Shown in pieces: positions 7,197 to 59,519 of a DNA stretch of 64,000 nucleotides. The DNA is from a virus. Taxonomy: Duplodnaviria > Caudoviricetes. Location: IMG/VR virus record IMGVR_UViG_3300027672_001796. One strand, given 5' to 3'. Position 1 is the first letter of the stretch, and each line of letters begins with the position of its first letter. The notes beneath the pieces were generated by a model. It was not told the DNA's origin. It made no database searches and saw nothing but the letters and a program-made list of their open reading frames with translations. The translations under genes and the position numbers were made by a program.

Positions 7197-7202
7197 TATA
7201 AT
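7173..7202 (+). promoter_or_regulatory. sigma70-type promoter, probably giving a leaderless uvsW mRNA
   Basis: TTGACA-N18-TATAAT; the ATG is only 5 nt after the -10 box and there is no SD. Confidence 0.7.
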
Positions 7203-7207
7203 AACTT

Positions 7208-8665: not shown

Positions 8666-9165
8666 AAATATTAACAGTTGAGAATACCGTATTTGAAATA
8701 GACCAAGTTCCGGATCAGATAGATGATGTCCGGTTTGCTGTGTTTGATACGACCGATCCGACATTTATGGATTACTATTTCCTACCCCTCATATTCCTAG
8801 AGAGTTTTTATGCTCCAGCAATATGTTTACAAATCGGTGAACACAATATTCAAATGCCGATGGATTGGAGTATAGCAATCACCGATGAAGATTTAACTGG
8901 CGTGGAAGTTATTCCATTAACTAGTTTAAACAATAGAGGCTTTTTAACAGTGGCATTAAATCCACTAAGCGGCTCACTGTTGTCAGCAGAAGAAATTAAA
9001 ATTACAAATATCTTTCAAGATGTGAAGTGGTTCTTTCCAAAGCTAAAAAATGGACACATGTTAATTGTACCTCTAGAAGATGGTCACAATCCTAAGTGTG
9101 TCATGTTTGTTAAAGAAGCAAATAAAATACCACATGAAATAGATATTGGTCAGTTAATTGACTAG
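8662..9165 (+). CDS. conserved hypothetical beta-rich protein
   Basis: Overlaps the uvsW stop; 167-aa ORF with typical codon usage. Confidence 0.75.
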   Translation: MKILTVENTVFEIDQVPDQIDDVRFAVFDTTDPTFMDYYFLPLIFLESFYAPAICLQIGEHNIQMPMDWSIAITDEDLTGVEVIPLTSLNNRGFLTVALNPLSGSLLSAEEIKITNIFQDVKWFFPKLKNGHMLIVPLEDGHNPKCVMFVKEANKIPHEIDIGQLID

Positions 9166-9174
9166 GAGGCTCAA

Positions 9175-9927
9175 ATGAGTTTAGATACAGATATAGATAA
9201 AATGACGCAGAAACTGAAAGGTGTAAAAAGGCGTTTTAGAATTGAAGCAGGATACCGAGGTGGCGAAGTAACAATTGGTACAGTTAACGAAGATTTCGTA
9301 GACTACTTTATGGATAAAGAAGAAAGCGAGTTAATAGATTATGTTACTAGTTTCGGTTGGGACGATGAAGATATAGATAACGATATTCCAATTCCTTACG
9401 AAGACTTTGAATCGTGGACAGAAACAACGGACATCGAACATATAAATGGTGCTTACTCAGATGACCAATTTACAGTCGAAGAAGTTAAAGCAGACGGTAG
9501 CGATGATTATCCCTACACCAATCAAATTGATATAGATGGATGGCATTTATACGGTAGAGAAGCATACCATGACACAACTAAGCCAGACGACATGACTGAT
9601 TATAAGCCAGTGCTACAATTTCATAGTAGTGAGAAAGGTGGATTTGGTTGTTGGTTTGTTGAAACTATAGGCGAAGATTTCGACCCTAACCAAATTGCAT
9701 TCAATACTGTTGAAACAATGTGTGGCGAAATTGTGGAAGACGTTTGGTATAAAAAAGAAGTATTAGAACAGGAATGGGATAATAACGATACAAACGGTAA
9801 AGGCTACTATGCAAGTGTAGGGTATATGAATATGAAATGGCATGACAACGATACCAAGTACACACCGGAGTATTTAGACGAAAACGAAATGTGGCTTGAT
9901 ATGGAAGATGAATTAAATGCCGAGTAG
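9175..9927 (+). CDS. acidic hypothetical protein
   Basis: GGAGG SD; 250-aa D/E-rich ORF. Confidence 0.75.
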   Translation: MSLDTDIDKMTQKLKGVKRRFRIEAGYRGGEVTIGTVNEDFVDYFMDKEESELIDYVTSFGWDDEDIDNDIPIPYEDFESWTETTDIEHINGAYSDDQFTVEEVKADGSDDYPYTNQIDIDGWHLYGREAYHDTTKPDDMTDYKPVLQFHSSEKGGFGCWFVETIGEDFDPNQIAFNTVETMCGEIVEDVWYKKEVLEQEWDNNDTNGKGYYASVGYMNMKWHDNDTKYTPEYLDENEMWLDMEDELNAE

Positions 9928-10474
9928 TTATAATATTGATTTAAAAGATAGTATTAGAACAGTTTCCGGATTTCCAAAAGCAGGTATTGAATTTAGAGAT
10001 ATTACAAGCCTGCTAGAAAACCCCGAAGCATTTAACAAGTCATTATCAGAGTTAACTTCATTAACAATGGGCTTTGGTGCTACTAAACTTATTGGCATTG
10101 AAAGTAGAGGGTTTGTATTTGGTGCTCCTATTGCCAGCGATCTAGACTTGCCTTTTATAATGGCTCGTAAGCCTGGTAAGTTGCCTGGTAAGATATATAG
10201 GAAAGACTACGAACTAGAATACGGTACTGCAAGTTTAAACATACAATGCAGTACAGACATTGCACCACACGACAAAGTAGTAATCATGGACGACTTAATT
10301 GCTACAGGCGGCACAGCAATAGCGTGTGCTGACATTGTACATGAACATTTTGCTGTACCAAAAGAAAATATTTTAATTTTAGCACTAATAGACTTGCCCA
10401 CACTTAAAGGAAGTGCTATAATAAAACAACATGGATACAGCGTAAACACACTAATCGAATTTGAAGGTGAATAA
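9917..10474 (+). CDS. apt: adenine phosphoribosyltransferase
   Basis: FPKAGIEFRDIT, GIESRGF, ARKPGKLPG, YELEYG and the PRPP motif VVIMDDLIATGGT. Confidence 0.95.
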   Translation: MPSSYNIDLKDSIRTVSGFPKAGIEFRDITSLLENPEAFNKSLSELTSLTMGFGATKLIGIESRGFVFGAPIASDLDLPFIMARKPGKLPGKIYRKDYELEYGTASLNIQCSTDIAPHDKVVIMDDLIATGGTAIACADIVHEHFAVPKENILILALIDLPTLKGSAIIKQHGYSVNTLIEFEGE

Positions 10475-11015
10475 TATCAAAGATATAATTTTAATAGCAT
10501 TGGAGCAAGAAGCTCCTGAAATGGCTACATGGGAAAACGTTTTCTTTACTGGAGTAGGTAAAGTTAATGCAAGTATGACAGCGGCAAAGTTAATAGAAAG
10601 ATACAAGCCTGAACGTGTTTGGAACTTTGGTACTGCTGGAGGAATCACATTGCATAACGGCATACATCAAGTTGGTAAAGTTGTACAACGTGATATGAAA
10701 TGCACACAACTAGGTATCGAACTAGGAGAGACACCATTCGAACCAAACAGCAGAACAATTGTTATTGGTGAAGGCATCTCTTGTAGTACTGGAGATGATT
10801 TTGTTATAAATCCTAAACTGGCAATACCTACAGACATTGTTGAAATGGAAGCCTATGCAATTGCAAAAGTTTGTAAAAATGAAGTCGTAAAATTTTACTG
10901 TTATAAATACATCAGCGATACTGCAGATGAGGAAGCCGGATCTACATGGGCTGAAAATGTTGCTAATGGCGAGGAACACTTTATAAAAACATACAAGGAT
11001 TATCATGGCGGCTAA
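10461..11015 (+). CDS. mtnN: MTA/SAH nucleosidase (PNP/MTAN superfamily), short form
   Basis: TGVGKVNA, NFGTAGG, STGDDFV, VEMEAYAIA and YISDTAD motifs. Confidence 0.85.
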   Translation: MKVNNIKDIILIALEQEAPEMATWENVFFTGVGKVNASMTAAKLIERYKPERVWNFGTAGGITLHNGIHQVGKVVQRDMKCTQLGIELGETPFEPNSRTIVIGEGISCSTGDDFVINPKLAIPTDIVEMEAYAIAKVCKNEVVKFYCYKYISDTADEEAGSTWAENVANGEEHFIKTYKDYHGG

Positions 11016-11478
11016 GAAGAAGGCACCAGCTATACCACTATCAGAAGTTATGAGAGCGATTGACGTAAAGGATCGAGGATGGTATACTAGGCTTGATGCA
11101 GAAAAGAAAAAGGCATTTAGTGCCTGGATGATGATGCGTTATGCTAGTTGTGTTCGAGGCCCAAAGTCAGCTGACTACTTATATATGGTTAACGAATGTA
11201 TTAATAATAGATTTAGTGATGTTAGTAAACATCCAGAATTACAATGGCTATTGTTTACTGTAGCTGGTTGTGGCAAAACGCAAAATCATGAATACATTAA
11301 ACCGCCGAACACTAGAAAAAAGAAAAACAAGGTGTTTACAGCAATATCAGAATTACTGCCACATTTAAAGCATGATGAGTTAGAGTTACTATTAAGTATA
11401 AACACTAAAGACGAACTCAAGCAATATGTTAAAGATGCTGGCGTTGAGGATAAAGAAATAAAAGAGATATTTAAATAA
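11005..11478 (+). CDS. clamp-loader small subunit (gp62)-like protein
   Basis: Helical protein with WMMMRYAS, HPELQWLL and YIKPP; size and context fit gp62-like proteins. Confidence 0.5.
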   Translation: MAAKKKAPAIPLSEVMRAIDVKDRGWYTRLDAEKKKAFSAWMMMRYASCVRGPKSADYLYMVNECINNRFSDVSKHPELQWLLFTVAGCGKTQNHEYIKPPNTRKKKNKVFTAISELLPHLKHDELELLLSINTKDELKQYVKDAGVEDKEIKEIFK

Positions 11479-12146
11479 TGGAATGTAAGTGGTGCAAAAA
11501 ATCATTTAAGTCAGAGACTACTCTGGCAGTTCATATGTGTGTAAAGAAACGCAGATATGCAGACAAGGATATGAGCCACATACGATTAAGCCACCGTGCA
11601 TTCCAAATGTTTTATGATTTAAATACTAGTGCTAAACATCCTAAGACAATGGAAGACTTTATTGTAAGTCCTTATTACGAATCATTTGTTAAATTTGGCA
11701 GAGCATGTCAAGTGAACGAATGGCTACAGCCAGAACAATTTACAGAATGGCTAATTAAGACAGGCGTAAAATTAAAGTTATGGATATCTGATGCACAGTA
11801 CGATAAGTTTTTAAAAGAATATGTAAAAAAAGAGCCTGGTCTAAAAGCATTAGAGCGAACTGTAATTTACATGTCCAAGTGGGGAGAAGAACATAATGAA
11901 ATATGGCAGTCATACTTTATTAATGTATCTCCTAGCAGAGCAGTATATGATATACGTTCAGGCAAAGTAAGTCCTTGGGTGTTGTATTTAAGTGACACAG
12001 GCGGAACATTGTTAGAACGTTTTAACGATGAACAAATAAAAATGATACAAGATAATATAGATCCTCCGTTTTGGATGAAACTATTTAAAAATAACAAAGA
12101 TGAAGTAGCAGAGATTAAAGAAACATGCGTGAGAGCAAATCTATGA
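11478..12146 (+). CDS. conserved phage protein with N-terminal zinc finger
   Basis: CKWCKKSFKSETTLAVHMC (C2H2/C2HC-like). Confidence 0.75.
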   Translation: MECKWCKKSFKSETTLAVHMCVKKRRYADKDMSHIRLSHRAFQMFYDLNTSAKHPKTMEDFIVSPYYESFVKFGRACQVNEWLQPEQFTEWLIKTGVKLKLWISDAQYDKFLKEYVKKEPGLKALERTVIYMSKWGEEHNEIWQSYFINVSPSRAVYDIRSGKVSPWVLYLSDTGGTLLERFNDEQIKMIQDNIDPPFWMKLFKNNKDEVAEIKETCVRANL

Positions 12147-12988
12147 GGAAAAAAAATAAGCTGATGGTCAGTGGAGCAAGTTATTCCGCCGCTAATTGGA
12201 ACGAACCACATTGGGCAGACATTATTGCAGAACAAGGCGACTTTAAAAAAGTAGAATTTGAAGGCATTAATTGGAGTGATTGGGAAGCCGGCGCATTTGT
12301 TACTATTGGTAGATTATTAAACGATAGAAAAATATCCCATTTAATTTATACTGGTACATTTACATTTGTAGAGCAATTACAACAAGAAAACATACCTGAT
12401 AAGAAGAGTTTATTTGACCTAAATGAAAAGATAGTGATAGACATGGCTAGAACTCCAGCATTTTTATCTAAACTTGGAATACTGTTTAGCAATTTCCTGC
12501 CTACTAAGTCCAGAGATCCAGCTGGTAGAAGACTTGGTAATCGTGAATGGGTAGCACATAGAGGAGTTGTTGCAAGTGAAGTACCTGTAGTACCTGCAAA
12601 TAAAGTAGTTGACAAATTTGGTCAAGTGTTTGTAGGGTTAGAAGATAAAGAGTTTTATACTACTCCTCAATATAAACGATATTTAAGAGCATTATCCAGT
12701 ATATCATTAGTTAAAGCGATATGTGACCAATTGGGGGTCAAAGTAATATTATTGCCCTTCCCTTTCACAGACGATTTAACTTCCAGCACATTAACAAGGT
12801 TACCAGACTTTTCGTTAATGGATATTTGGGACATTATTCCAGAATCATTTGGCTCTATTGAAAACTGGAGAAAATTATCATCGGAACGAGGCTGGATACC
12901 TTTAGCTTCGCACTTTGATGATTGGGGACATGACCAAGTAGCAAAAGCATTTTTAAACAACGATAACAATAAGGAATTTTTAAAATAA
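12143..12988 (+). CDS. SGNH/GDSL-like hypothetical protein
   Basis: N-terminal SGASYS block and C-terminal SHFDDWGH; overlapping ATGA start at 12143. Confidence 0.55.
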   Translation: MRKKNKLMVSGASYSAANWNEPHWADIIAEQGDFKKVEFEGINWSDWEAGAFVTIGRLLNDRKISHLIYTGTFTFVEQLQQENIPDKKSLFDLNEKIVIDMARTPAFLSKLGILFSNFLPTKSRDPAGRRLGNREWVAHRGVVASEVPVVPANKVVDKFGQVFVGLEDKEFYTTPQYKRYLRALSSISLVKAICDQLGVKVILLPFPFTDDLTSSTLTRLPDFSLMDIWDIIPESFGSIENWRKLSSERGWIPLASHFDDWGHDQVAKAFLNNDNNKEFLK

Positions 12989-13677
12989 TGAAAGCAAAGA
13001 TAATTAGTTATAGTCAAGCACCAGACCCATCCGGATTAGATAAAGATTCAAGTCTATTAGGCTTAGTGGCATATTGTGCCAGGGTAAGTAATCCAGAAAA
13101 TCAAGACAATACAAAAACAAATGACAAGCTAGTAAAGTATCTAATGAAGCACAAACATTGGAGCCCACTTGAAATGGTAAGTGTTTGTATGGAAGTAGAA
13201 ACTACTAGAGACATTGCTAGACAATTATTGAGACACAGAAGTTTTAGTTTCCAAGAGTTTAGTCAACGTTACGCAGACCCTACAAAAGATTTAGCATTTG
13301 AGATTAGACAAGCAAGATTACAAGATCCTGTTAATAGGCAAAACAGTATTGAACTTGATCCTGAGATGGATGGACATGCAGTACTCCAAGGCGAATGGAA
13401 AAACAAGCAACAACGAGTTATAGACGCATCCTTAGACGCTTACAATTGGGCTATAAGCAAAGGAATTGCTAAAGAGCAGGCAAGAGCAGTACTTCCAGAA
13501 GGAAACACACTAAGCAGGCTCTACGTGAATGGTACACTTCGTAGCTGGATACATTATATTGAATTGCGTGGATCAAATGGCACACAGTTAGAACATATGG
13601 AATTAGCACATGCAGTAGCAGAAGTTATTGCAACGGTATTCCCAATGGCTGGAGAATTTGCTGGAAAAGAGATATGA
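12988..13677 (+). CDS. thyX: flavin-dependent thymidylate synthase
   Basis: HWSPLE, RHRSFSFQEFSQRYA signature and KEQARAVLP. Confidence 0.96.
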   Translation: MKAKIISYSQAPDPSGLDKDSSLLGLVAYCARVSNPENQDNTKTNDKLVKYLMKHKHWSPLEMVSVCMEVETTRDIARQLLRHRSFSFQEFSQRYADPTKDLAFEIRQARLQDPVNRQNSIELDPEMDGHAVLQGEWKNKQQRVIDASLDAYNWAISKGIAKEQARAVLPEGNTLSRLYVNGTLRSWIHYIELRGSNGTQLEHMELAHAVAEVIATVFPMAGEFAGKEI

Positions 13678-15955: not shown

Positions 15956-15980
15956 TATTTATAGTACAAATGGATAAATA
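15956..15980. promoter_or_regulatory. back-to-back T4-type late promoters
   Basis: TATAAATA on the minus strand (15956-63) and ATAAATA on the plus strand (15974-80), between divergent genes. Confidence 0.65.
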
Positions 15981-48981: not shown

Positions 48982-49608
48982 ATGAAAACGGCATCAGTTA
49001 CCGGAGCATCAAATGGAATTGGCAAAGCAATAGTAGACTTGCTAAAACTCAATCAGTATTCTGTACTGGAATTTGATATAGAAAGGGATATAAGCGTTCC
49101 TGAAAATAGACAGTATATAGTTAACGAATCTATAGATTGTGATGTGTTTATTAACAATGCCTGGACCAGTACCATTTCACCTGAAAGTCAACTTGATATG
49201 TTTCAAGATTTTGTAACAGCATGGCATGATGACAAAGACAAGCATATTATAAACATGGGATCGCTAATGAAATCTACTCCACAATGGCTTATCGGCAAAG
49301 CGAATGAAGATGAAGACGATCATCAATTTATCGATAAACGCCGACGTGCCAATATATACAGAGTGTCTAAAAAAGATTTATATAAACATACTATCTTAAA
49401 ACATTTAGATGCAAGTATACTATGCAAAATATCAATAGCACAACCAGGGTTTACTAAAACAGAATTTGCACAAGAATATATGTTTTCACCTGGCAGAGAC
49501 CATCAAGAAATGATAGAAGTGATGCAACCAGCCCAAGTAGCCAGGCAGATATTGGATATAATAGAATCACCCGTGCATGTAATAGAAACAAGTTTCAGAT
49601 TAAGATGA
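48982..49608 (+). CDS. short-chain dehydrogenase/reductase
   Basis: TGASNGIG, DVFINNA, YRVSK (YxxxK) and QPGFTKT. Confidence 0.8.
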   Translation: MKTASVTGASNGIGKAIVDLLKLNQYSVLEFDIERDISVPENRQYIVNESIDCDVFINNAWTSTISPESQLDMFQDFVTAWHDDKDKHIINMGSLMKSTPQWLIGKANEDEDDHQFIDKRRRANIYRVSKKDLYKHTILKHLDASILCKISIAQPGFTKTEFAQEYMFSPGRDHQEMIEVMQPAQVARQILDIIESPVHVIETSFRLR

Positions 49609-50210
49609 AAACGGTAGCGATCACTGGTCATCTTAATGGTATTGGTAAAGCAACTAATGATTTACTAATAGCTAATGGCTATACTGTTAAAGGTTTTGAC
49701 ATTGAGCATGATATTAACGATCCCGAACAACGCTTTTCAATTCTAGAACAATCTAGAGATTGTGATATCTTTATCAATAACGCCGTTGGAAAAAAAGACT
49801 CGCAAAATATTATGTTTGAATTATTCTTTAACGAATGGAAACGTGATAAATCAAAACATATTCTCTCGGTCGGGTCTCTGATGAAATACTTTAACAGTAG
49901 AGGAGATGTTATTAACAGAAACGTTTTATTACATCCACCGGACTATGTAGCAACAAAGAAAAAACTTAATAACCAAACAATTGTAGCTTCAAACCAACCA
50001 GATACGGAATGTCAGCTAGGCATAATTCAGCCTGGGTTTGTATATACCGAATTTATATCATCGATAATAGAAGAAAAAAACGATCTGCCGGCTTTGACGG
50101 CAGACAATGTCGCAGACAAGATTTTGTATATGATAGAAGCTGAAGAAGAGATAGTTGAACTCACATATAGAGTAAGAGGCTCTTTCAAACAATATAGAGA
50201 TGATAAATAA
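49605..50210 (+). CDS. short-chain dehydrogenase/reductase, tandem paralog
   Basis: TGHLNGIG, DIFINNA, YVATK and QPGFVYT. Confidence 0.8.
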   Translation: MKTVAITGHLNGIGKATNDLLIANGYTVKGFDIEHDINDPEQRFSILEQSRDCDIFINNAVGKKDSQNIMFELFFNEWKRDKSKHILSVGSLMKYFNSRGDVINRNVLLHPPDYVATKKKLNNQTIVASNQPDTECQLGIIQPGFVYTEFISSIIEEKNDLPALTADNVADKILYMIEAEEEIVELTYRVRGSFKQYRDDK

Positions 50211-50272: not shown

Positions 50273-50536
50273 ATGCCAGGAGTAACTAGAGTCGGAAAAG
50301 ATACAGCAAAAGGTTCCATTTTAGGGACCGGTGCAAGTACGGTATTCACAGAAGGCTCAAGAACAAGTTTACTAGGTGACAAAGTTGCACCTCACGGCAA
50401 ACCTCCCCACACCGCTCCAACTATAGTTAAATCCAGTACAACAGTATTTGCTGAAGGTAAAGGAGTTGTTAGAAAAGGCGACCCTGCCACGTGTGCTCAT
50501 ACCGCCACTGGCTCTAGTACCGTATTTTCCGGATAA
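50273..50536 (+). CDS. PAAR-repeat spike-tip protein (gp5.4-like)
   Basis: TRVGKD, TVFTEG, LLGDKVAPH, VRKGDPATCAH and TVFSG. Confidence 0.85.
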   Translation: MPGVTRVGKDTAKGSILGTGASTVFTEGSRTSLLGDKVAPHGKPPHTAPTIVKSSTTVFAEGKGVVRKGDPATCAHTATGSSTVFSG

Positions 50537-50552
50537 TATAACCTAAAAACAG

Positions 50553-50559
50553 ATAAGTA
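50553..50559 (+). promoter_or_regulatory. variant late promoter heading the desaturase operon
   Basis: ATAAGTA-N6-ATG (50566), with no SD. Confidence 0.5.
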
Positions 50560-50565
50560 TTAACT

Positions 50566-51708
50566 ATGCTGTTAATTCAATTCAACACCTCGATAGATAT
50601 TTCAATTTTCCCTGTTGAGATAATTCAAACATTTAAACATGACACATATCTTATTGATTTGAACTTGACCGATTATAGTACAATTAACTATATAACAAGC
50701 AACTATGACATACTAAGTATGCAAAGCAATGCTGATATGCCGTATATCGACGTATACGAAGCTCATACAACGTCATACACCAACGTTACAACCGAAGACA
50801 CACTTGCGCCACTTATAGAAAAACTTGACCTACTGAGCATGGCAGAGCCCCATATAGTATGCTTTAGTTGGACAACAGACCGTAACTATATATTAGATTA
50901 CCGTGTTAAAAAACTATTAGAAGCTGGATTTTTAGTTGTTTGTGGCGGCGGAAATGCAGACTTACCTATAACAGATGTAAGCCCAGTTGCAGTAGACGGT
51001 GTAATTAGAGTAGGTGGAAACAAATACAACGGACAATATCAAAACTGGATAGACATATATGATGTAACTGTTCCAGATGTGCCTAACACTCATGAAGCGG
51101 CACACATAGTATGCGAACTAATGATTAATAAGAATTTAGAACTAGATTACAGTTTAGGATTTTATAGCGAAAGTACTATTCGTAGTGCGCCATGGCCTCT
51201 TAGACTCGCACAAACGCCCAGCACAGCAATTAAATACTATGAATTTATGCCTGTATCCAATTTGCGATACTTTAGCGGAGAGCATTTATTACCAGTTAGA
51301 GAAGGCGACACAGTAAGTGTACTGTATGGCGGAGTTCCACTAGAAGACTTTACAAGCCCAAGGAACATTCAACTAGACACTACAGTACCAAGAGGGTGTA
51401 CATTTAACACACAAAGTGGTTGGCTGTACGGCACATTTAAATTTAAAGTACCTATGTTCCATAGATTTTTAGCAGACATAAATGGGCAGTTATTCGAGTA
51501 TCACATTATAAGTGCTGACGCAGATACTAAGCCAGACTTTGCAGAATGTAAACAAAAATATTTAAACCAGCCATACGATGCTCCACCATTTACTATGAGA
51601 GAGTATTGGGTGCCTATGGCAAGACCTATTAAACTATTAGAGCCAGGCGACCCATTTATTAGAACTTTTAATTTAAACGACTTACATTTATATAGGAGTT
51701 ACGAATGA
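50566..51708 (+). CDS. degenerate subtilisin (S8)-like protein with Ig-like C-terminal segment
   Basis: IVCFSW...LLEAGFLVVCGGGN...VSPVAVDGVIRVGG matches the S8 core but GTSMA is absent; VPRGCTFNTQSGWLYGT resembles He_PIG. Confidence 0.55.
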   Translation: MLLIQFNTSIDISIFPVEIIQTFKHDTYLIDLNLTDYSTINYITSNYDILSMQSNADMPYIDVYEAHTTSYTNVTTEDTLAPLIEKLDLLSMAEPHIVCFSWTTDRNYILDYRVKKLLEAGFLVVCGGGNADLPITDVSPVAVDGVIRVGGNKYNGQYQNWIDIYDVTVPDVPNTHEAAHIVCELMINKNLELDYSLGFYSESTIRSAPWPLRLAQTPSTAIKYYEFMPVSNLRYFSGEHLLPVREGDTVSVLYGGVPLEDFTSPRNIQLDTTVPRGCTFNTQSGWLYGTFKFKVPMFHRFLADINGQLFEYHIISADADTKPDFAECKQKYLNQPYDAPPFTMREYWVPMARPIKLLEPGDPFIRTFNLNDLHLYRSYE

Positions 51709-52661
51709 GAGGTGTAACTTTTAGTGAATTCGCCGGCGGACAAAATGTAGAAATGTTTTTACATGCTCCTACACAATTACCTGGCACACCAATGCAAGAA
51801 GCTGTTAAGACAGCAATAACCATTAGAGAAAAATATACAAAAGATTTATATGTATGGTGTGATTATAGTGTACAACATATCTATTCACAGATAGCCATGC
51901 AGGCTTTTACAATGGCAGACATTCCATTTGTAGCCGCAATACCAGTTTTAAGTAATAACCTTAGTAAACGTGAAAACGATTGTACTATTGCATATTGCGA
52001 ACAGCGAAATATACCGTACAAACTTTTCCATATAGATGTTCCTGCATTTTTTGACAGTGAAGAGTTTGAATTACACGGAGAAACATTCCCAACAACCCAA
52101 CCACAGATGACTATAGTTGGCAAGTTCTTTTCCATGCTACCGGATTGTTGCGTAGTGTATCCCGGATTTATGATGCACATAAGTAATAGTGATTGGACAA
52201 GAACTAAGAACAATGGCTTTATGCCTTTTGTTCCACATGTAACACAAGAACATGCGGCTGAACACCATGGGCTAGAATATACAAATTTCCAAGAGCATTA
52301 TGTTGACATGTATACTAGTTGGATGTTTACCCAAAGTTATGGCGAAGTATTAAAGTCGGCAACACAGGAATTTGTTGACAATGCACCACATAGATATTAT
52401 CAATATGAGATGCGAACAATTAAACAAGCTGGGTTTGATATTAAACCAACAACAAACAAGCTAATTGGCATTGAAAAACTCAAAAGTCACTTCGGTCATG
52501 ATAAATATGATAAAGAGCTACGTCAACGTCTAGTACCATTTAGCCCACTAACCTTGAAGTATGCCAGTTTACAATACACAGTAAAAGTAGACACAAAGCT
52601 GAAGGAGATGTTGCAAACATACCATGAGACGAATTTTGAATTCTTTAACAAACTTTTTTAA
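51705..52661 (+). CDS. hypothetical protein, possibly a degenerate PP-loop (HUP) fold
   Basis: Resembles phage SGGxDS-type proteins (AFxxADIPF, YCEQRNIPYK, PQM) but lacks the SGGxDS loop. Confidence 0.5.
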   Translation: MRGVTFSEFAGGQNVEMFLHAPTQLPGTPMQEAVKTAITIREKYTKDLYVWCDYSVQHIYSQIAMQAFTMADIPFVAAIPVLSNNLSKRENDCTIAYCEQRNIPYKLFHIDVPAFFDSEEFELHGETFPTTQPQMTIVGKFFSMLPDCCVVYPGFMMHISNSDWTRTKNNGFMPFVPHVTQEHAAEHHGLEYTNFQEHYVDMYTSWMFTQSYGEVLKSATQEFVDNAPHRYYQYEMRTIKQAGFDIKPTTNKLIGIEKLKSHFGHDKYDKELRQRLVPFSPLTLKYASLQYTVKVDTKLKEMLQTYHETNFEFFNKLF

Positions 52662-53457
52662 CGATAAAGCAAAAGCAAACTTTTGGCTTTACACCTTACC
52701 GGTCCAATTAGTAGGCTGGTGCATAATTCCTATTATGGCATACAACGGCGATTGGAATTACTTATGGTTAAGTCTTATAACATATTTCTTGTTTGGATGT
52801 GTGGGAATGGCTATAGGACTACACAGATATTGGGGCCATGCATGTACTGAGATGCCTAAATGGAAAGAACGTATAATGACAACGTGTAGTGTGTTTAATG
52901 GATACGGCGCAATCTTCCCTTGGGTTATGATACATACCTCTGGACACCATAAGAACGCAGACAAAGAAGGAGACCCACATAGTCCACTACAAGGATTTTG
53001 GCATGCCTTTTTAACATGGCATAGGGAACAAAAATATTTCGACCAGCACATTGATAGAAGAGTGCTAGTCACATACATTAGGCGCGGATTTGTAAACGAC
53101 AAATACTACCAGTTCTTAAATGACAATCATTTAGCAATTAACTACGGAACAGTATTATTAGCATGGTTATTGTTTGGCTGGCAAGTTGCACTATACGGTA
53201 TTGTGTTCGGTATATGGTCAACACTAATGAATACAAGTACGGTAACAGCACTAAGTCATTACAGTTGGTTTGGGTATAAAAACTTTGAAACTAAAGACAA
53301 TAGTGTAAACAATAGAGTAGGCGCAATACTTACATGGGGCGAAATGCTACATAACAATCATCACAGATATTGGAATGCACAAAGCAACAGCCACCATTGG
53401 AGTGAAATAGATATGAGTGGGTGGGTTATAAAATATCTACTCAAGAAGAAAGACTGA
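52624..53457 (+). CDS. membrane fatty-acid desaturase (delta-9-like)
   Basis: His boxes GLHRYWGH, HTSGHH...DPHSP and GEMLHNNHH, plus TM helices. Confidence 0.9.
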   Translation: MRRILNSLTNFFNDKAKANFWLYTLPVQLVGWCIIPIMAYNGDWNYLWLSLITYFLFGCVGMAIGLHRYWGHACTEMPKWKERIMTTCSVFNGYGAIFPWVMIHTSGHHKNADKEGDPHSPLQGFWHAFLTWHREQKYFDQHIDRRVLVTYIRRGFVNDKYYQFLNDNHLAINYGTVLLAWLLFGWQVALYGIVFGIWSTLMNTSTVTALSHYSWFGYKNFETKDNSVNNRVGAILTWGEMLHNNHHRYWNAQSNSHHWSEIDMSGWVIKYLLKKKD

Positions 53458-54224
53458 TGTTATTTTACTTAATATTCTTTCCAATTGCTCTTGCAAGTTT
53501 AGGCTGGAGTCTATTTAATGGTAGTTTAGAATTATGGGTAGCAACATCCATATTTACATTTTTATACAGTGGATATGGAATTAGTGTTGGCTTCCACAGA
53601 TTACTAAGTCACGGAACATTTAAAACATCTGAAACTATACGAAAGTTATTGTTATTTTGGGGATGTCAAGGAGCTCAAGGCTCACCGGTCACATGGAGTT
53701 TGATACATAATAGAAGTCATCATGCTTACACGGATACAGACAGAGATGTACATACACCAACAAAAGGTATATGGTATTCATTATTTGGATGGATATTTCA
53801 CAAAGAGAACCACGAATTTGCACGAAAAGAATTGTTTAAGATTAGAAAGCAATTAGATCCGTTTGCATTGTGGTGCCATAAAAATTATAATATGTTAATC
53901 ATATTGAACTTGGTAGTTATTGGATTACTAAGCGGATATATGTTTGGCGGCAGATTTGTACTTGCAAGTTTAAATGCAAGTATTTTAAGTGTGGTAATAA
54001 GTGGTATAGTTAATTGGCTAGGTCACTACCCTATTAAAGGATTAACATACACAGACTACAAAATGAATAACAAAAGCACAAACAATCCTTGGGCAGTATT
54101 TTTAACATGGGGTGAAAGTTTACACAACAACCATCATGCAAATCCAAGGAGATTAAGTTTCGCCACTAGATGGTATGAATTGGATGTTGGATTATGGATG
54201 ATAAACCTAATAAAGAAATCTTAA
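53457..54224 (+). CDS. membrane fatty-acid desaturase (delta-9-like), second copy
   Basis: GFHRLLSH, HNRSHH...DVHTP and GESLHNNHH; start at ATG 53457 overlaps the previous stop. Confidence 0.9.
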   Translation: MLFYLIFFPIALASLGWSLFNGSLELWVATSIFTFLYSGYGISVGFHRLLSHGTFKTSETIRKLLLFWGCQGAQGSPVTWSLIHNRSHHAYTDTDRDVHTPTKGIWYSLFGWIFHKENHEFARKELFKIRKQLDPFALWCHKNYNMLIILNLVVIGLLSGYMFGGRFVLASLNASILSVVISGIVNWLGHYPIKGLTYTDYKMNNKSTNNPWAVFLTWGESLHNNHHANPRRLSFATRWYELDVGLWMINLIKKS

Positions 54225-54796
54225 GAACTTTCTTTGATGGCAAAATAGGCTGTATTGAGTACAGCGAAAAATGGCGTCCTCAATTGGAAGAATTTTGCCG
54301 TGTAGCAAAAGACTTAGGATATGTTAATAACGAATCACCTGAAGCAATGAAAGTAGATGAAATACAATACCATTGTATGATTCATATCCCAACAAACAGA
54401 ATATATGCCGTAGCTGGTGTACAATATATGCCTGAATATAGAGAAGGATACTATCGTATCTGGACTAGGCTTTCTAGAATACCAATGGAAGATATACCAA
54501 TGACCAGGATGACCAGATACGGACGAGGCGAAATGCCTGAGTTTGACGGTCTACTGTATTTTAATTGTGACTGGGCCTGGAAACAATCTAATTGTAAAGC
54601 AACATTTGGCACAACACTAGCCAACAAAGCCTATGCAGATAATTATGTTAGAAGTGCAAACACTATAACAGATTATGTTGCAAAGAACTGGTGGAGAAGG
54701 AAAGGCATAGCAACACCAGAAGGTATGACAGAATTTTATGGAGTTCCACAAGTAGTTTGGAATATGCATTTTGATAAATTTAAGGAGTTGTCGTGA
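54194..54796 (+). CDS. hypothetical protein, possible GNAT/acyltransferase fold
   Basis: IYAVAGVQ...YYRIWTRL and FYGVPQVVW fit the GNAT beta pattern; weak. Confidence 0.4.
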   Translation: MDDKPNKEILRTFFDGKIGCIEYSEKWRPQLEEFCRVAKDLGYVNNESPEAMKVDEIQYHCMIHIPTNRIYAVAGVQYMPEYREGYYRIWTRLSRIPMEDIPMTRMTRYGRGEMPEFDGLLYFNCDWAWKQSNCKATFGTTLANKAYADNYVRSANTITDYVAKNWWRRKGIATPEGMTEFYGVPQVVWNMHFDKFKELS

Positions 54797-55650
54797 ACAA
54801 CGTAAAAAGAGTTATTTTTGATGTACAGAGTGCTAAGAACATCTTTTGGGACGATACCCCAATTAGAGTTGGAGCATTATTAACAATACCAGATAAGTTT
54901 AAAGGCAACCAACCGTTATGTATTATAAGTCATGGTTCAGGTGGACTTGGTGCTGATACTGATTTATTTGTAGACAGTCTAGGTAAACATGGTATTGCCA
55001 CATTATGTGTCGATAGTTTTACAGGCAGAAGCATGGAAGCCATTGGATGGAATGACTTTAGCAGTTATGTAAGTCCAAAGATGAGAGCAATGGAAACAGT
55101 AGAAGCATACAAGTTCTTATGTGATAACCACAAGAATATGTTCGCTGGCATAGATTTACAACGTATAGCATTTGTAGGATTTAGTTGGGGAGCAGATTCA
55201 GTAGCAAATGTCATTGCCCACTATAGCGAAATACTACCTAAGAAAACATTCTTTTCATTATGCTATGGGAACTTATGGCCCTTTGAGCAAGAGTTTTACA
55301 AAGCAAAAGACTGGGACGTTACATGCTACCACGGTGCAGATGACCTTTGGACTAGTGCAGAAAAAAGTAAAATATTTGCACAAGAAACAAACAGTCAATT
55401 TGTAGAGTTTATGGGCGTAACACATGGATTCACAAAGCCTGGATATAAGAAAGAAATAGCAAAGCAAGTGATAATAAATCATCATGCAGACTTTCCAGTA
55501 CCCACAGACCTAAAGCAAGTGTACAGCTGGATACAAAAGGGCAAAGTTTGGGAAGATACTGAATGGAAGAAAGTAGATGCCCCATTAGACTATGACCAAA
55601 TGGCAACAGAAAGAGTATTAGCGGATATAGTTAACAAACTCAAATCATAG
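54793..55650 (+). CDS. dienelactone-hydrolase-like alpha/beta hydrolase
   Basis: HGSGG, nucleophile elbow GFSWG, HGADD and THGF (Ser-Asp-His). Confidence 0.85.
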   Translation: MNNVKRVIFDVQSAKNIFWDDTPIRVGALLTIPDKFKGNQPLCIISHGSGGLGADTDLFVDSLGKHGIATLCVDSFTGRSMEAIGWNDFSSYVSPKMRAMETVEAYKFLCDNHKNMFAGIDLQRIAFVGFSWGADSVANVIAHYSEILPKKTFFSLCYGNLWPFEQEFYKAKDWDVTCYHGADDLWTSAEKSKIFAQETNSQFVEFMGVTHGFTKPGYKKEIAKQVIINHHADFPVPTDLKQVYSWIQKGKVWEDTEWKKVDAPLDYDQMATERVLADIVNKLKS

Positions 55651-55662
55651 ATAAATACAAGT

Positions 55663-56685
55663 ATGAGTAAATTACTTTGGGTCAAAGGACCTCATACCAC
55701 AGATCCAGAACGAGCAGTACAAATACAATGGAGTATGGGTAATACCTGTAACTACAGTTGTGATTACTGTCCACCTATTCTACACAATGGTACTAAGCCA
55801 TGGATGTCCACAGAACAATACATAAACGTAGTCGATAAAATCTCAGAACACTATAAAGCCGCTGGCAGATTTATGCATTGGGAGTTATTAGGTGGCGAAG
55901 TAACTACTATACCAAATTTTGAAGACATAATAAAACGTATAGCATATCACGGATCAAGTGTTACTATATATACTAACGGTAGCAGAACTATACGTTGGTG
56001 GGAAGAAGCTAAAACATATTTGTCAGGCGTAGTTATAACATATCACCCATTAACAATGGATGAACAGCATTTATATGATGTTGTTGCTACTCTAAAAGAT
56101 GCACTTGTAATGGATATAAACATAGCAGGCATTGGCGGACAAGTAGAGCAGTTAAGTACAGTTGCAGATAATTTACGAAACATGTTTACAGATGGAGTAC
56201 GCCAATCTGTCTACGATGTAAACATAACAATAAAAACTATGTACAACAAGTATTTGGGTGCAGATGCAAATCATAACCAGCAAACAACTTACTACGACTA
56301 TACTCCAGACGAAATAAAAATAATGCAACGTCCAGGAGTTTTACCTAATCCAAATCATACACCATCAGGTGACCCGGACGACAGCCAAGACCATCCAAAG
56401 TTTTGGAGTACAGAATTTATGTATGATGATGCTCCAGCAAAGTATGTACAGAGTCATCAAATTATAAATGAAGGACTAAACAAATTCAAAGGCATGAAAT
56501 GTGAATTAGGATTTGATAGTTTAAATATTGATATGAATGGCGAAGTAATTAGCAGTTGGTGTGGAGCAAAAAACTTTGGGAACATAACGCAATTAGATAA
56601 TTGGGAAATTCCAAAAGAGGAAACTCGTTGTCCTTACGAGTTTTGTAATAACCTAAACGACATCAGTATAACTAAAACTAATTAA
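55663..56685 (+). CDS. radical SAM protein with C-terminal SPASM/twitch-like Cys cluster
   Basis: CNYSCDYC, GGEVT, YTNGS and CELG...SWCG...CPYEFC; preceded by ATAAATA-N5-ATG. Confidence 0.9.
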   Translation: MSKLLWVKGPHTTDPERAVQIQWSMGNTCNYSCDYCPPILHNGTKPWMSTEQYINVVDKISEHYKAAGRFMHWELLGGEVTTIPNFEDIIKRIAYHGSSVTIYTNGSRTIRWWEEAKTYLSGVVITYHPLTMDEQHLYDVVATLKDALVMDINIAGIGGQVEQLSTVADNLRNMFTDGVRQSVYDVNITIKTMYNKYLGADANHNQQTTYYDYTPDEIKIMQRPGVLPNPNHTPSGDPDDSQDHPKFWSTEFMYDDAPAKYVQSHQIINEGLNKFKGMKCELGFDSLNIDMNGEVISSWCGAKNFGNITQLDNWEIPKEETRCPYEFCNNLNDISITKTN

Positions 56686-56800: not shown

Positions 56801-56902
56801 GTGAGTAAACAACGTTTGATAAAAATCCGAAGCCACATGGAAGTACTAGTGTTGCTTACGATTTTTATATCGTCTATATTTGCTTTGGCTCCTGCACTTT
56901 AG
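56801..56902 (+). CDS. 33-aa membrane peptide, not in the ORF track
   Basis: GTG start 7 nt after AGGA; MSKQRLIKIRSHMEVLVLLTIFISSIFALAPAL. Confidence 0.5.
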   Translation: MSKQRLIKIRSHMEVLVLLTIFISSIFALAPAL

Positions 56903-56911
56903 GAAAATATT

Positions 56912-57145
56912 ATGGGTTGGATAGAAAAAGAAACTATCGATGCCAGATTTATTTCAGACGATATGTTGGGTAAGAAGTTAAGAAGCGAAGTTATTAATAA
57001 GATGTGGAATTTGCCACTAGTTATTAAAACAGGATCATCTAAGGCAAACCCAGGTTTAAAGAATCAAGTATTTAATATACTCGACGACATGCATATCGCA
57101 GAAAGTCTGTGTAGAGATGACGAAATAGAAATAGTGAGAGTATAA
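56912..57145 (+). CDS. hypothetical protein
   Basis: 77-aa ORF with an AGGA SD. Confidence 0.65.
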   Translation: MGWIEKETIDARFISDDMLGKKLRSEVINKMWNLPLVIKTGSSKANPGLKNQVFNILDDMHIAESLCRDDEIEIVRV

Positions 57146-57313
57146 ATGAGAGACGCAACACCGGAAGAACATAAGGAATGGATGGAAACAGACTACTTTA
57201 TGGCAATGAAGTTTAATCCAATGGTGATGTTTGTAGTTATACCAGCACTGGTACAAATTACAGTGTTCGGTTTTATGCTATTATCCTTTGCAGTAACTAA
57301 TGTACTCTTTTAG
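57146..57313 (+). CDS. 55-aa membrane protein, not in the ORF track
   Basis: MRDATPEEHKEW...NPMVMFVVIPALVQITVFGFMLLSFAV; abuts the previous stop. Confidence 0.65.
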   Translation: MRDATPEEHKEWMETDYFMAMKFNPMVMFVVIPALVQITVFGFMLLSFAVTNVLF

Positions 57314-57467
57314 ACATATAAGTAAATTATTGTTAGGGGTAGGATCTGCAGAAGATGAAGATTTTGAAGTAACTCCGATTAAAATACTTATAACAGCATT
57401 ATTAGTTGCATTAGGCTTTCTCGGTACCGTGAGTGTGCTTATTTTAGTAGCAAGTCTGCTGATTTAA
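57300..57467 (+). CDS. 55-aa membrane protein, DUF2970-like
   Basis: LLLGVGSAEDEDFEVTPIKILITALL followed by a TM helix. Confidence 0.55.
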   Translation: MYSFRHISKLLLGVGSAEDEDFEVTPIKILITALLVALGFLGTVSVLILVASLLI

Positions 57468-57481
57468 ATATAAATAGTAGT

Positions 57482-58060
57482 ATGATCCCATACTACTTAG
57501 ATTTACCTCAACTAGATATACCCCAAGAGCTTGTTGAAAGCAAGTATGTACAACACCCTATGGACTTTTTATCCCCAAGCGGATCAGGCATGGGCGGAAA
57601 AAACTTTCAGTACAGAGGCGTACCAACTAATTGGTATTCTATTGTAAAAACTTATTTAGAAAGTGTGCTAACTATACCAGTGGGAAGTTTAACCCTGTTA
57701 AACACTAACAAAGACGCTAGTAGCCCATGGCATGCCGAAGGACCTAATACGTTTGGACGTAGGTGTGCATTAAACTTTATGGTTAGCGGAGACTTTGAAA
57801 AGTCTTATGTACAATGGTGTACAAGGGGAGAAGAAGAATTAGAAACAAATGACTCACGTGGTGCTTGGTGGGAAGATGACAACATGGAAGTACTTGCAGA
57901 ACATAGAATGACCATTGGCAAGCCGACCATTTATAACACTATGCATTGGCACAGAGTATTTAACTTCACAGACAACGATAGAATGGTTATTAGTATGGCT
58001 ATTAATGAGCCTATAGAAAAAATATACGAAATGTATGAAGCAGGAACATTACTCAAATGA
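57482..58060 (+). CDS. 2OG-Fe(II)/cupin-like oxygenase, paralog 1
   Basis: WHAEGP, CALNF, YNTMHWHR and RMVIS; preceded by ATAAATA-N5-ATG. Confidence 0.7.
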   Translation: MIPYYLDLPQLDIPQELVESKYVQHPMDFLSPSGSGMGGKNFQYRGVPTNWYSIVKTYLESVLTIPVGSLTLLNTNKDASSPWHAEGPNTFGRRCALNFMVSGDFEKSYVQWCTRGEEELETNDSRGAWWEDDNMEVLAEHRMTIGKPTIYNTMHWHRVFNFTDNDRMVISMAINEPIEKIYEMYEAGTLLK

Positions 58061-58812
58061 TGCCGTACTACTTTGAAGTACCAGAGATAACACTTCCGTT
58101 TGATGTGTTAAAATATCTAGATAACGCAAACCAGATCCTGCCGGCAGAATTCGCCCTGCGAGGGGACGTGGGCATGAAAAGAAATTCACAAGTGGATACT
58201 AATGCCGACTATGTATATAGTTTAGCTCAAGGTAAAACAAGTTCCAAAGAAGCTGGGTGGTATTTAGAAGGCTTCGGAGGAGGAAATCCAAACCAACAAA
58301 ATACGCCAGATACAGCGAATGACGGCACCGGCATGACCGAAGAACAAAATGCTGAGATGAGTAAAGAATTAAATGCATGGGCTAACGATTTATTAGACAT
58401 TAGAATGACTAGTGTTAGTTTATTAAGAAGTTTACCAGGCAAAAATGGCTGGTGGCATTGTGAAGGACCATCATTACGCAGTAGAAGATGTGCATTAAAC
58501 TTTCTTGTAGAAGGAGAAGTAGGCACAACTAAAGCACAATGGGGATATAATAAAAATTGGGGGAATGTTGCACCCGAGCAAGTTGAAAGAATGGGGTATG
58601 TTAAAACAGCAGATGTTGAACATATCGAAGTATTAGACGAATATGTTTCTCCAGTACTTAATAGAGGATTCTTTTATAATACTATGTATTTACATCGTAG
58701 TTTCAATGAGGAATGTACTAAGCATAGAACAATATGTAGTATCGCAGTTGCTGAAAACATAGATATAAATATAGTACATAAGAAGTATTTAAAAGGAACA
58801 CTATTCAAATGA
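58057..58812 (+). CDS. 2OG-Fe(II)/cupin-like oxygenase, paralog 2
   Basis: WHCEGP, CALNF, YNTMYLHR and RTICS. Confidence 0.7.
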   Translation: MMPYYFEVPEITLPFDVLKYLDNANQILPAEFALRGDVGMKRNSQVDTNADYVYSLAQGKTSSKEAGWYLEGFGGGNPNQQNTPDTANDGTGMTEEQNAEMSKELNAWANDLLDIRMTSVSLLRSLPGKNGWWHCEGPSLRSRRCALNFLVEGEVGTTKAQWGYNKNWGNVAPEQVERMGYVKTADVEHIEVLDEYVSPVLNRGFFYNTMYLHRSFNEECTKHRTICSIAVAENIDINIVHKKYLKGTLFK

Positions 58813-59519
58813 GAAACGAGCTACCATATTATTTCGAAGTACCAGAAATGCCTAAGATACCATTTGATGTTTCTCAATACTATATTCCAGATGAAGATAG
58901 ATTGGTTGCACAAGAAGATAAAAAGAACTTAGACGATATACAGGGTGTAAAGAGTAGAAGCCAGAGTGCAAACTGGTACCAAAGTTATATGAATGTAGAA
59001 GAAAATAGTAGAGGACAAAACAAGCGAGACTTTAAAGAAGTTAACTTGTATGAAGAAGTTGATTTTGAACTTACTAAGCTCATGAAAGAATTTTTAGGCG
59101 ATACATTACATTTACGATTTAACAGTATCCTTATGTTACGAACTCCAGCAAACTGTAACAGCAGATGGCATTGTGAAGGACCTGTATTCCATACTAGACA
59201 ATGTGCATTAAACTTTCCTGTATTTGGCAACGCTGATGTAATGGAAGGACAGTGGGCAACATTCCCACGTTTTAAAGATATTCCTGCAAGGGAAAATGAA
59301 AAGATGGGATTCGTTACTAAGACAGATATGGAAAATACTGAAATATTATGTAAGTGGGACAAGCCAACGATGCCAGCATTTTATAACACAATGATATTCC
59401 ATAGAGGAATGAATGAACATAGCAACATAGATAGAGTAGTACTAAGTTGTGCCGTAGAAGACTTCAGCGATATTAATGTAGTTCATAGAAAATACTCCAC
59501 CGGCAAACTTTTTAAATAG
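58809..59519 (+). CDS. 2OG-Fe(II)/cupin-like oxygenase, paralog 3
   Basis: WHCEGP, CALNF, YNTMIFHR and RVVLS. Confidence 0.7.
   Translation: MRNELPYYFEVPEMPKIPFDVSQYYIPDEDRLVAQEDKKNLDDIQGVKSRSQSANWYQSYMNVEENSRGQNKRDFKEVNLYEEVDFELTKLMKEFLGDTLHLRFNSILMLRTPANCNSRWHCEGPVFHTRQCALNFPVFGNADVMEGQWATFPRFKDIPARENEKMGFVTKTDMENTEILCKWDKPTMPAFYNTMIFHRGMNEHSNIDRVVLSCAVEDFSDINVVHRKYSTGKLFK

Follow-up and report, generated by a model that had tools for sequence, protein, structure and literature searches.

Two divergent desaturases and a GNAT-fold protein lie in a conserved gene block of marine jumbo phages that may tailor fatty-acyl chains

We analysed a block of seven adjacent genes (g1–g7, Table 1) in a 64,000-nt stretch of DNA, referred to here as the window, from an uncultured marine jumbo phage (IMG/VR record IMGVR_UViG_3300027672_001796; ∼37% G+C). 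As a preliminary description of the locus had proposed, six co-oriented, overlapping genes (50566–55650) are followed by a radical SAM (rSAM) gene (55663–56685), and all have open reading frames (ORFs) on the + strand. That description took the block for a late-expressed, lipid-tailoring operon. The best-supported unit within it consists of two desaturases and a GNAT-fold protein (g3–g4–g5), probably together with the hydrolase g6.

Table 1. Features of the gene block and its surroundings, in window coordinates
Feature	Position	Strand	Basis or remark
g1, putative subtilase-like pseudo-protease, 380 aa	50566..51708	+	residues ~80-190 subtilase-like, then a C-terminal domain without fold assignment
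g2, AsnB-type synthetase-domain fold, 318 aa	51705..52661	+	PP-loop ATPase superfamily; without glutaminase domain and without SGGxDS
g3, desaturase 1, predicted SCD-type membrane di-iron enzyme	52624..53457	+	PDB profile, His boxes
g4, desaturase 2, 255 aa from ATG 53457	53457..54224	+	PF00487; alternative GTG 53421 gives 267 aa
g5, GNAT-fold protein (modelled), 200 aa, unnamed mostly viral family	54194..54796	+	AF2 model, fold searches
g6, alpha/beta hydrolase, dienelactone-hydrolase-like	54793..55650	+	DLH near cut-off, triad
g7, radical SAM (rSAM) enzyme	55663..56685	+	PF04055; probably own transcription unit
promoter-like heptamer ATAAGTA	50553..50559	+	6 nt before g1 ATG
promoter-like heptamer ATAAATA	55651..55657	+	5 nt before rSAM ATG
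promoter-like heptamer ATAAATA	57470	+	5-6 nt before ATG 57482 (first cupin gene)
PAAR-motif protein	50273..50536	+	PF05488 E 7e-10; directly upstream of g1; cassette membership doubtful
two short FabG-like SDR genes	48982..50210	+	phrog_3142 E 8e-12 and 2e-6; TGxxxGIG and YxxxK

Profile matches and catalytic residues identify g3 and g4, as far as their sequences can tell, as SCD-type membrane di-iron desaturases that lie outside the canonical Delta-9 clade. The g4 protein matched PF00487 (E 3.3e-20; 73.3 bits against a cut-off of 29.7). For g3, which has no PF00487 match, a profile search of the PDB found the SCD1 structure 4zyo (E 2.6e-7), and the NCBIfam DesA family was matched with E 3e-17, a score far under that model's 400-bit cut-off; g4 also matches this family. 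Nine histidine ligands of the di-iron site are invariant or nearly so across both paralogues and their relatives (H67, H72, H104, H108, H109, H212, H243, H246 and H247 in g3 numbering), although the second histidine box reads HX3HH in place of the canonical HX2HH. Each protein has two hydrophobic stretches. In a phylogenetic tree, both fall outside a well-supported clade (100/99) of 17 bacterial acyl-CoA/DesC sequences, with g4 grouping with the HX3HH homologues P0109–P0112, and they are not recent duplicates of each other. Among the next-nearest g4 relatives, one bacterial protein (P0110, 35% identity) is encoded next to a gene for a carrier protein, with an rSAM gene 1.2 kb downstream. On this bacterial contig (L032:6519-11088) the genes for a Rieske oxygenase, a carrier protein, the g4-like desaturase, an unknown 390-aa protein and a radical SAM enzyme stand in a row, which may be a cellular counterpart of the phage desaturase–rSAM pairing.

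The protein encoded between the second desaturase and the hydrolase, g5, was assigned by structure prediction. Its AF2 model (pLDDT 84.9) returned GNAT enzymes for all of the top 50 matches in each of three fold searches, with an E of 1e-5 for Foldseek against the PDB and VIA Z scores of 10–11 (root mean square deviation (rmsd) 3.3–4.1; 138–156 residues aligned). An acyltransferase fold for the ORF at 54194 had been set beforehand as a check on the preliminary description, and the GNAT fold found by Foldseek and VIA on this model answers it in the affirmative. Profiles recognise none of this: g5 has no Pfam (E 0.1), NCBIfam or PHROG match, and the family, with 31 representatives in 1.84 billion proteins, contains no member with a Pfam match (0/31). 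The invariant residues of the family are N46, G75, R92 and P97, and a loop of low pLDDT at residues 101–113 reads TRYGRG in the window and RFDRA or otherwise in relatives. Compared with known GNAT acyltransferases, including those such as the LuxI-type synthases that use acyl-acyl carrier protein (acyl-ACP), g5 shares the full-length fold and differs in having no profile match, no conserved CoA motif and its own set of invariants. Its similarity to the RhlI and LuxI models (TM 0.52 and 0.48 over residues 18–199) is no better than that to acetyltransferases. As judged from the model, then, g5 is a GNAT-fold protein that belongs to no named GNAT family and represents a new one. Word-based homologue searches with g5 and g2 found only relatives of at least 53% identity, and no viral locus was obtained for P0061. 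A complex prediction for g3, g4 and g5 scored 0.00 without controls, which speaks neither for nor against binding.

The pairing of desaturases with this GNAT-fold protein recurs in a second phage lineage. In nine contigs of another group of jumbo phages (lineage B, L019), one of them a complete genome of 342,607 bp, a g5 relative of 24% identity is encoded between two desaturases; the DnaB of this lineage is 55% identical to that of the window, and no g2 relative was found in the lineage-B genome. The gene order there is MoxR-like ATPase, FadD-like long-chain acyl ligase (E 4e-61), flavin-dependent halogenase of the Trp-halogenase family, desaturase, g5 relative, desaturase, FabF-like ketoacyl-ACP synthase (E 1e-75) and DUF2201. 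These six acyl genes (L019:4842-13898) lie between the MoxR-like ATPase and the DUF2201/VWA gene, and look inserted since those two genes are usually adjacent. The lineage-B desaturases could not be paired with g3 or g4 in the tree because the branches are too long. Elsewhere, g5 relatives have a halogenase (L049) or an aminotransferase and a short AMP-binding enzyme (L050) as neighbours, with several rSAM genes nearby (L009 and L050).

Further acyl genes are present in the genomes of relatives, at other positions. In a near-complete close relative of the window phage (G004), genes for an AcpP-like carrier protein (E 5e-13) and for a ketoacyl synthase were found; a genome of the second lineage (G001) has three carrier-protein genes along with genes for a ketoacyl synthase and a phosphopantetheinyl transferase. 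The carrier-protein gene of G004 adjoins DnaJ and ClpB-like chaperone genes, not lipid genes (L046:6625-7688), and a third desaturase gene in the same genome has five radical SAM genes around it, of which three encode SPASM domains (L048:3955-10924; G004 5955-12924). A useful comparison is the JamA/JamB/JamC system, where a membrane-bound desaturase works with an acyl-activating ligase and an acyl carrier protein to tailor the fatty acyl chain that serves as starter unit (bioRxiv 10.1101/291195). The lineage-B cassette likewise has a ligase and desaturases, and in the bacterial locus L032 the carrier-protein gene adjoins the g4 relative. In contrast, the window cluster itself lacks genes for a ligase and a carrier protein, and the likeness drawn here is one of gene set.

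Within the clade of the window phage the whole block is conserved. The gene order PAAR-g1-g2-g3-g4-g5-g6(-rSAM) is shared by 11 IMG/VR contigs as well as several metagenome contigs, which agrees with the co-conservation in relatives that had been set beforehand as a second check. Even the most distant clade member, L007, keeps all genes at 39–58% identity per protein, with the rSAM gene adjoining g6. As all block-bearing contigs come from one phage clade, this synteny alone says little about function. One relative (L008), a frameshift-ridden long-read assembly, was left out of the gene calls.

The hydrolase g6 and the rSAM enzyme g7 retain their catalytic residues. The match of g6 to DLH lies just under the cut-off (E 8e-4; 19.4 bits against 21), and the HGSGG motif, the nucleophile elbow G129-x-S131-x-G133, D184 and H211 are invariant in eight homologues. 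The g7 protein matched PF04055 with 38.4 bits (cut-off 29.5) and has a CX3CX2C motif near residue 29; its NCBIfam matches, to the STM4011 family (E 1.5e-13) and a viperin-like model (E 1e-9), are both weak and far under their cut-offs.

The first two genes of the block encode proteins derived from enzyme families whose hallmark motifs have changed. For g1, 10 of the 13 weak matches in a profile search of the PDB are S8 proteases, the best (8c4z, E 0.009) covering residues 83–172 and the core of a proteinase-K-like subtilase; neighbours in the Atlas are S8 peptidases (scores 0.88–0.89), phrog_3677 (protease) is a weak match (E 3e-4), and no Pfam or NCBIfam match was found. Across seven homologues the GTSMA site of the catalytic serine reads NTHEA, NSNKA or CADRA, placing H, N or D at the serine position, while 6/7 retain the oxyanion Asn of the GGN motif, and a C-terminal domain of 190 residues follows. 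These matches weakly suggest a subtilase-like pseudo-protease that lacks the catalytic Ser.

The second protein, g2, is the most conserved of the block (58% identity in L007), with no match in Pfam, NCBIfam or PHROG or in a profile search of the PDB, and no distant loci in profile searches. Its AF2 model (pLDDT 69.8, with a C-terminal third of low confidence) placed asparagine synthetase and beta-lactam synthetase on top in Foldseek (E 4e-6), and VIA aligned 240 residues to residues 146–526 of human ASNS (Z 13.5, rmsd 4.2). All of the top 12 VIA matches are of the AsnB family (asparagine, beta-lactam and carbapenam synthetases; Z 12.9–13.5), compared with a Z of about 10 for other PP-loop enzymes. 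Thus, g2 resembles the C-terminal synthetase domain of these enzymes over about 240 residues, whereas it has no glutaminase domain and carries CDYSVQ in place of SGGxDS. This was seen in hhalign alignments to two viral Asn_synthase-like proteins, where SGGIDS stands opposite C52–Q57, a segment invariant in 14 homologues; the alignments are of low probability but agree with the secondary structure and the VIA ranges, and no SGGxDS PP-loop was found at the structural position. Because the motif is replaced by an invariant CDYSVQ, ATP pyrophosphatase chemistry is doubtful for g2.

Most of the gene labels in the preliminary description hold up. Both desaturases are borne out by PF00487 (g4), 4zyo (g3) and the nine histidines, the Ser-Asp-His hydrolase by its invariant triad, and the radical SAM enzyme by PF04055 and its cysteine motif; ‘pseudo-subtilisin’ fits g1 in that the catalytic Ser is replaced, though the subtilase likeness is weak. 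For the ‘PP-loop-like’ g2 the label survives at the level of the AsnB-like fold, but the AGGQNV sequence near the N-terminus lies off the PP-loop position.

The junctions between the genes are tight. The g1/g2 (ATGA) and g5/g6 (GTGA) junctions each overlap by 4 nt with AGGAG 6 nt before the downstream start, the g2/g3 and g4/g5 overlaps measure 38 and 31 nt, and g3 and g4 overlap by 1 nt (TGATG) from ATG 53457 or by 37 nt from GTG 53421, of which the ATG is the likelier start because all homologues are called at 255 aa. A gap of 12 nt separates g6 from the rSAM gene. No terminator-like hairpin was found on the + strand within 50566–56685, where sigma-70-like sites are not enriched (36 found against 41.8 expected). 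Contigs from four RNA libraries touch g3 and those of one library bridge the g3/g4 and g4/g5 junctions, although these contigs are short and sparse and carry no information on operon structure, strand, start or timing. Given the Shine–Dalgarno-coupled overlaps, the missing internal terminator and the two bridged junctions, g1–g6 are probably read as one message from an ATAA(A/G)TA element, with a separate copy serving the rSAM gene.

The preliminary description had pointed to this heptamer as ATAAGTA at 50553 and ATAAATA before the rSAM gene, and both sites proved to be conserved. Either ATAAGTA or ATAAATA lies at a constant distance before g1 in 8/8 genomes, while the flanking spacer varies; the heptamer precedes the rSAM gene in 7/7 genomes, also where an additional gene follows g6, and the first cupin (oxygenase) gene in 5/5. 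Among all 21 five-A/two-T heptamers, ATAAATA is the most upstream-enriched, with 7/20 copies lying 8–45 nt before a start (binomial p 6e-6), and it also precedes the tail-fibre-like gene at 42462. Since its position before the ATG is fixed in every relative, ATAA(A/G)TA is a genuine cis element. The T4 late promoter is TATAAATA, which this heptamer resembles, and by the measure applied to a T4-type -10 element it is TATAAATA-like, conserved and enriched upstream of genes. Late expression of the block would be only an analogy drawn from this likeness; the transcriptome paper on Pseudomonas phage PA5oct gives TATAATA and TTGAC as motifs and no matching late-promoter motif.

Further heptamers of the ATAAATA type are found at 15974, 25018, 25516 and 42428. 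At three genes (heptamers at 50553, 55651 and 57470) the element ends 5–6 nt before the ATG with no Shine–Dalgarno sequence, which suggests that these messages may be nearly leaderless. At other genes it lies 30–40 nt upstream and is followed by a normal ribosome-binding site.

The surroundings of the block are less constant. The PAAR gene is directly upstream of g1 in all relatives, L007 included, whereas the SDR genes (48982–50210) had no match in any of six relatives (L001–L006). In two relatives a further gene of ∼280 aa, missing from the window, separates g6 from the rSAM gene (L002:13940-14779 and L004:13939-14817); with an N-terminal GCSFTH and a C-terminal DxxH, it looks SGNH/GDSL-esterase-like. 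Between the rSAM and cupin genes, at 56801–57467, the window has small ORFs of 33, 77, 55 and 55 aa, three of them predicted membrane peptides; the number of these ORFs differs between relatives, and L030 has none. We considered these ORFs as RiPP (ribosomally synthesised and post-translationally modified peptide) precursors or as a carrier protein, and rejected both on these grounds and on the lack of a Pfam match. Three tandem paralogues with weak matches to Asp/Asn beta-hydroxylases follow at 57482–59519, of which L002, L004, L005 and L006 have two.

The phage itself encodes a DnaB (56% identical to that of PA5oct), helicases, a ribonucleotide reductase, a tail-fibre-like protein and the PAAR protein within the window, and its near-complete relatives measure ∼340 kb. 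A search of 50,697 phage records gave no match to the window DNA, and tblastn against the same records returned three weak desaturase matches only (26–29% identity). One desaturase match, in a record filed as ‘Acinetobacter phage MD-2021a’ (L053; CAKLQH020000002.1 49237-61908), was discounted as a phage gene, as the record carries trpB, trpC, btuB and baeSR and looks like a bacterial chromosome.

The explanation to which we give an even chance is that the block is a conserved phage cassette that tailors fatty-acyl chains. It draws on the kept gene order, the invariant catalytic residues, the recurrence of the trio beside acyl enzymes and the acyl toolkit in the genomes of relatives. Gene order, folds, catalytic residues, conservation and the recurrence of the core trio were observed here; the substrate, acceptor and product, the action of the genes in a single pathway and the timing are inferred. 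In such a cassette, g3 and g4 would desaturate an acyl chain, or oxidise it in a related way, with the chain probably carried as a thioester (acyl-ACP or acyl-CoA). As a soluble GNAT-fold transferase, g5 would then transfer the acyl group, most likely to an amine acceptor, and g6 would probably release or deacylate an intermediate. The conserved g1 and g2 would be accessory proteins with non-catalytic roles or non-canonical chemistry.

Several observations weigh against this explanation. Both g1 and g2 lack the catalytic motifs of their families, and the Q/RxxGxG/A motif that binds CoA after strand 4 is not conserved in the g5 family. As g3 and g4 lie outside the canonical Delta-9 clade, neither their substrate nor the position of desaturation can be inferred. 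Ligase and carrier-protein genes are missing from the window cluster and occur only elsewhere in the relative's genome. Stop–start overlaps are found at 26/64 junctions in the window, with a further run of six at 9917–13677, so gene overlap alone is weak evidence of a functional unit, and the RNA-library contigs could be carry-over DNA. Outside the one phage clade only the trio g3–g5 co-occurs, which means that g1, g2, g6 and g7 may be mere neighbours; g1, g2 and the rSAM gene show only loose associations there. Finally, no product or activity is known for the putative cassette. The lipid-tailoring part of the preliminary description holds in its co-conserved genes, the GNAT fold at 54194 and the recurrence of the trio beside a FadD-like ligase and a FabF-like synthase, and falls short in that g1, g2 and the rSAM gene are not tied to the pathway. 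That description did not recognise the block as a described pathway, and a literature search likewise found none that matches the gene set.

A simpler account, in which g3 and g4 independently desaturate acyl chains of host phospholipids and the other genes are unrelated neighbours in a packed genome, has a proven precedent in cyanophages, for which the preliminary description, too, had named single desaturases as auxiliary genes: the vFAD desaturases, each encoded by a single gene, act on C16 lipids with Delta-9 specificity (Roitman et al. 2017, PMC5776448). Like the vFAD enzymes, g3 and g4 are encoded by abundant marine phages and are assigned to the Delta-9/SCD superfamily of membrane di-iron desaturases; they match the DesA family and SCD1, gene overlap is common in this genome, and a lone desaturase occurs in L033. 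They differ from vFAD in being two divergent HX3HH paralogues outside the canonical clade that are locked to a GNAT-fold gene. The paralogues are found together everywhere, and the trio is kept in a distant lineage with a different neighbourhood, so we consider plain membrane-fluidity genes an unlikely explanation. Alternatively, the block could belong to a larger island (∼50.3–62.5 kb) with PAAR, the three Asp/Asn-hydroxylase-like cupins, a GT-A-like gene and a methyltransferase, which would acylate lipopolysaccharide/lipid A, another envelope glycolipid or a virion protein rather than make a free small molecule. The cultured Pelagibacter phage Mosig (MT647606) has an island of this kind, in which a desaturase gene is accompanied by two Asp_Arg_Hydrox and three MoaA-like rSAM genes, TauD, a methylase and a GNAT whose alignment to the g5 family is weak (E 0.0018), and pelagimyophage hypervariable regions mix tail-fibre, lipopolysaccharide-related and rSAM genes (PMC7029224). 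Mosig thus resembles the window as a marine myophage island that mixes desaturase, GNAT, rSAM, Asp/Asn hydroxylase-like cupin and methyltransferase genes. It differs in that its desaturase is single and not adjacent to the GNAT gene, and in having no annotated relatives of g1, g2 or g6.

The tail-fibre-like gene at 42462, the PAAR gene just upstream of g1, the third desaturase of G004 among five rSAM/SPASM genes, and the late-type motif, which by analogy would fit structural timing, are also consistent with such an island. Set against these, a promoter-like motif of their own precedes the cupin, glycosyltransferase (GT) and methyltransferase genes, whose number differs from relative to relative, the lineage-B trio sits beside a FadD-like ligase and a FabF-like synthase and not beside glycan genes, and no evidence points to a lipidated virion protein; we regard this island, too, as improbable. 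The toolkits of RiPP pathways include AsnB-like lasso cyclases and GNAT lipidation. A RiPP-like pathway to a ribosomal lipopeptide would assign the rSAM enzyme, an AsnB-like cyclase, a subtilase-like leader protease, the hydroxylases and a lipidating GNAT to a small precursor peptide. The resemblance of the gene set to those toolkits, the weak matches of the rSAM gene to RiPP maturase models and the small ORFs at 56801–57467 fit this scheme. We consider it very improbable, given that g1 has no catalytic Ser and g2 no PP-loop, that the small ORFs are membrane peptides of varying number absent in L030, and that no conserved precursor-like gene is present.

Extending the fatty-acyl tailoring cassette further is speculative, and we regard the extended reading as unlikely. 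Marine jumbo phages might run their own fatty-acyl secondary metabolism based on carrier proteins, in which the trio would make an unsaturated N-acyl compound with lineage-specific halogenase, ketoacyl synthase, rSAM or hydrolase partners; late in infection the product would be either released or incorporated into membranes. Candidates would be a lipo-amino acid, or an acyl-amide signal such as a long-chain unsaturated acyl-homoserine lactone.

The phage lipid genes known so far are single desaturases that adjust the fluidity of host membranes. What is new here is a GNAT-fold family, predicted from its modelled structure, together with two conserved proteins that derive from enzymes but no longer carry the hallmark motifs. 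At least 16 marine metagenome runs, drawn from at least 12 studies, contain near-identical DNA of this region, and any product of the cassette could therefore be ecologically widespread. If the tailoring role is true, abundant lytic marine phages would build or rebuild defined acyl compounds themselves.

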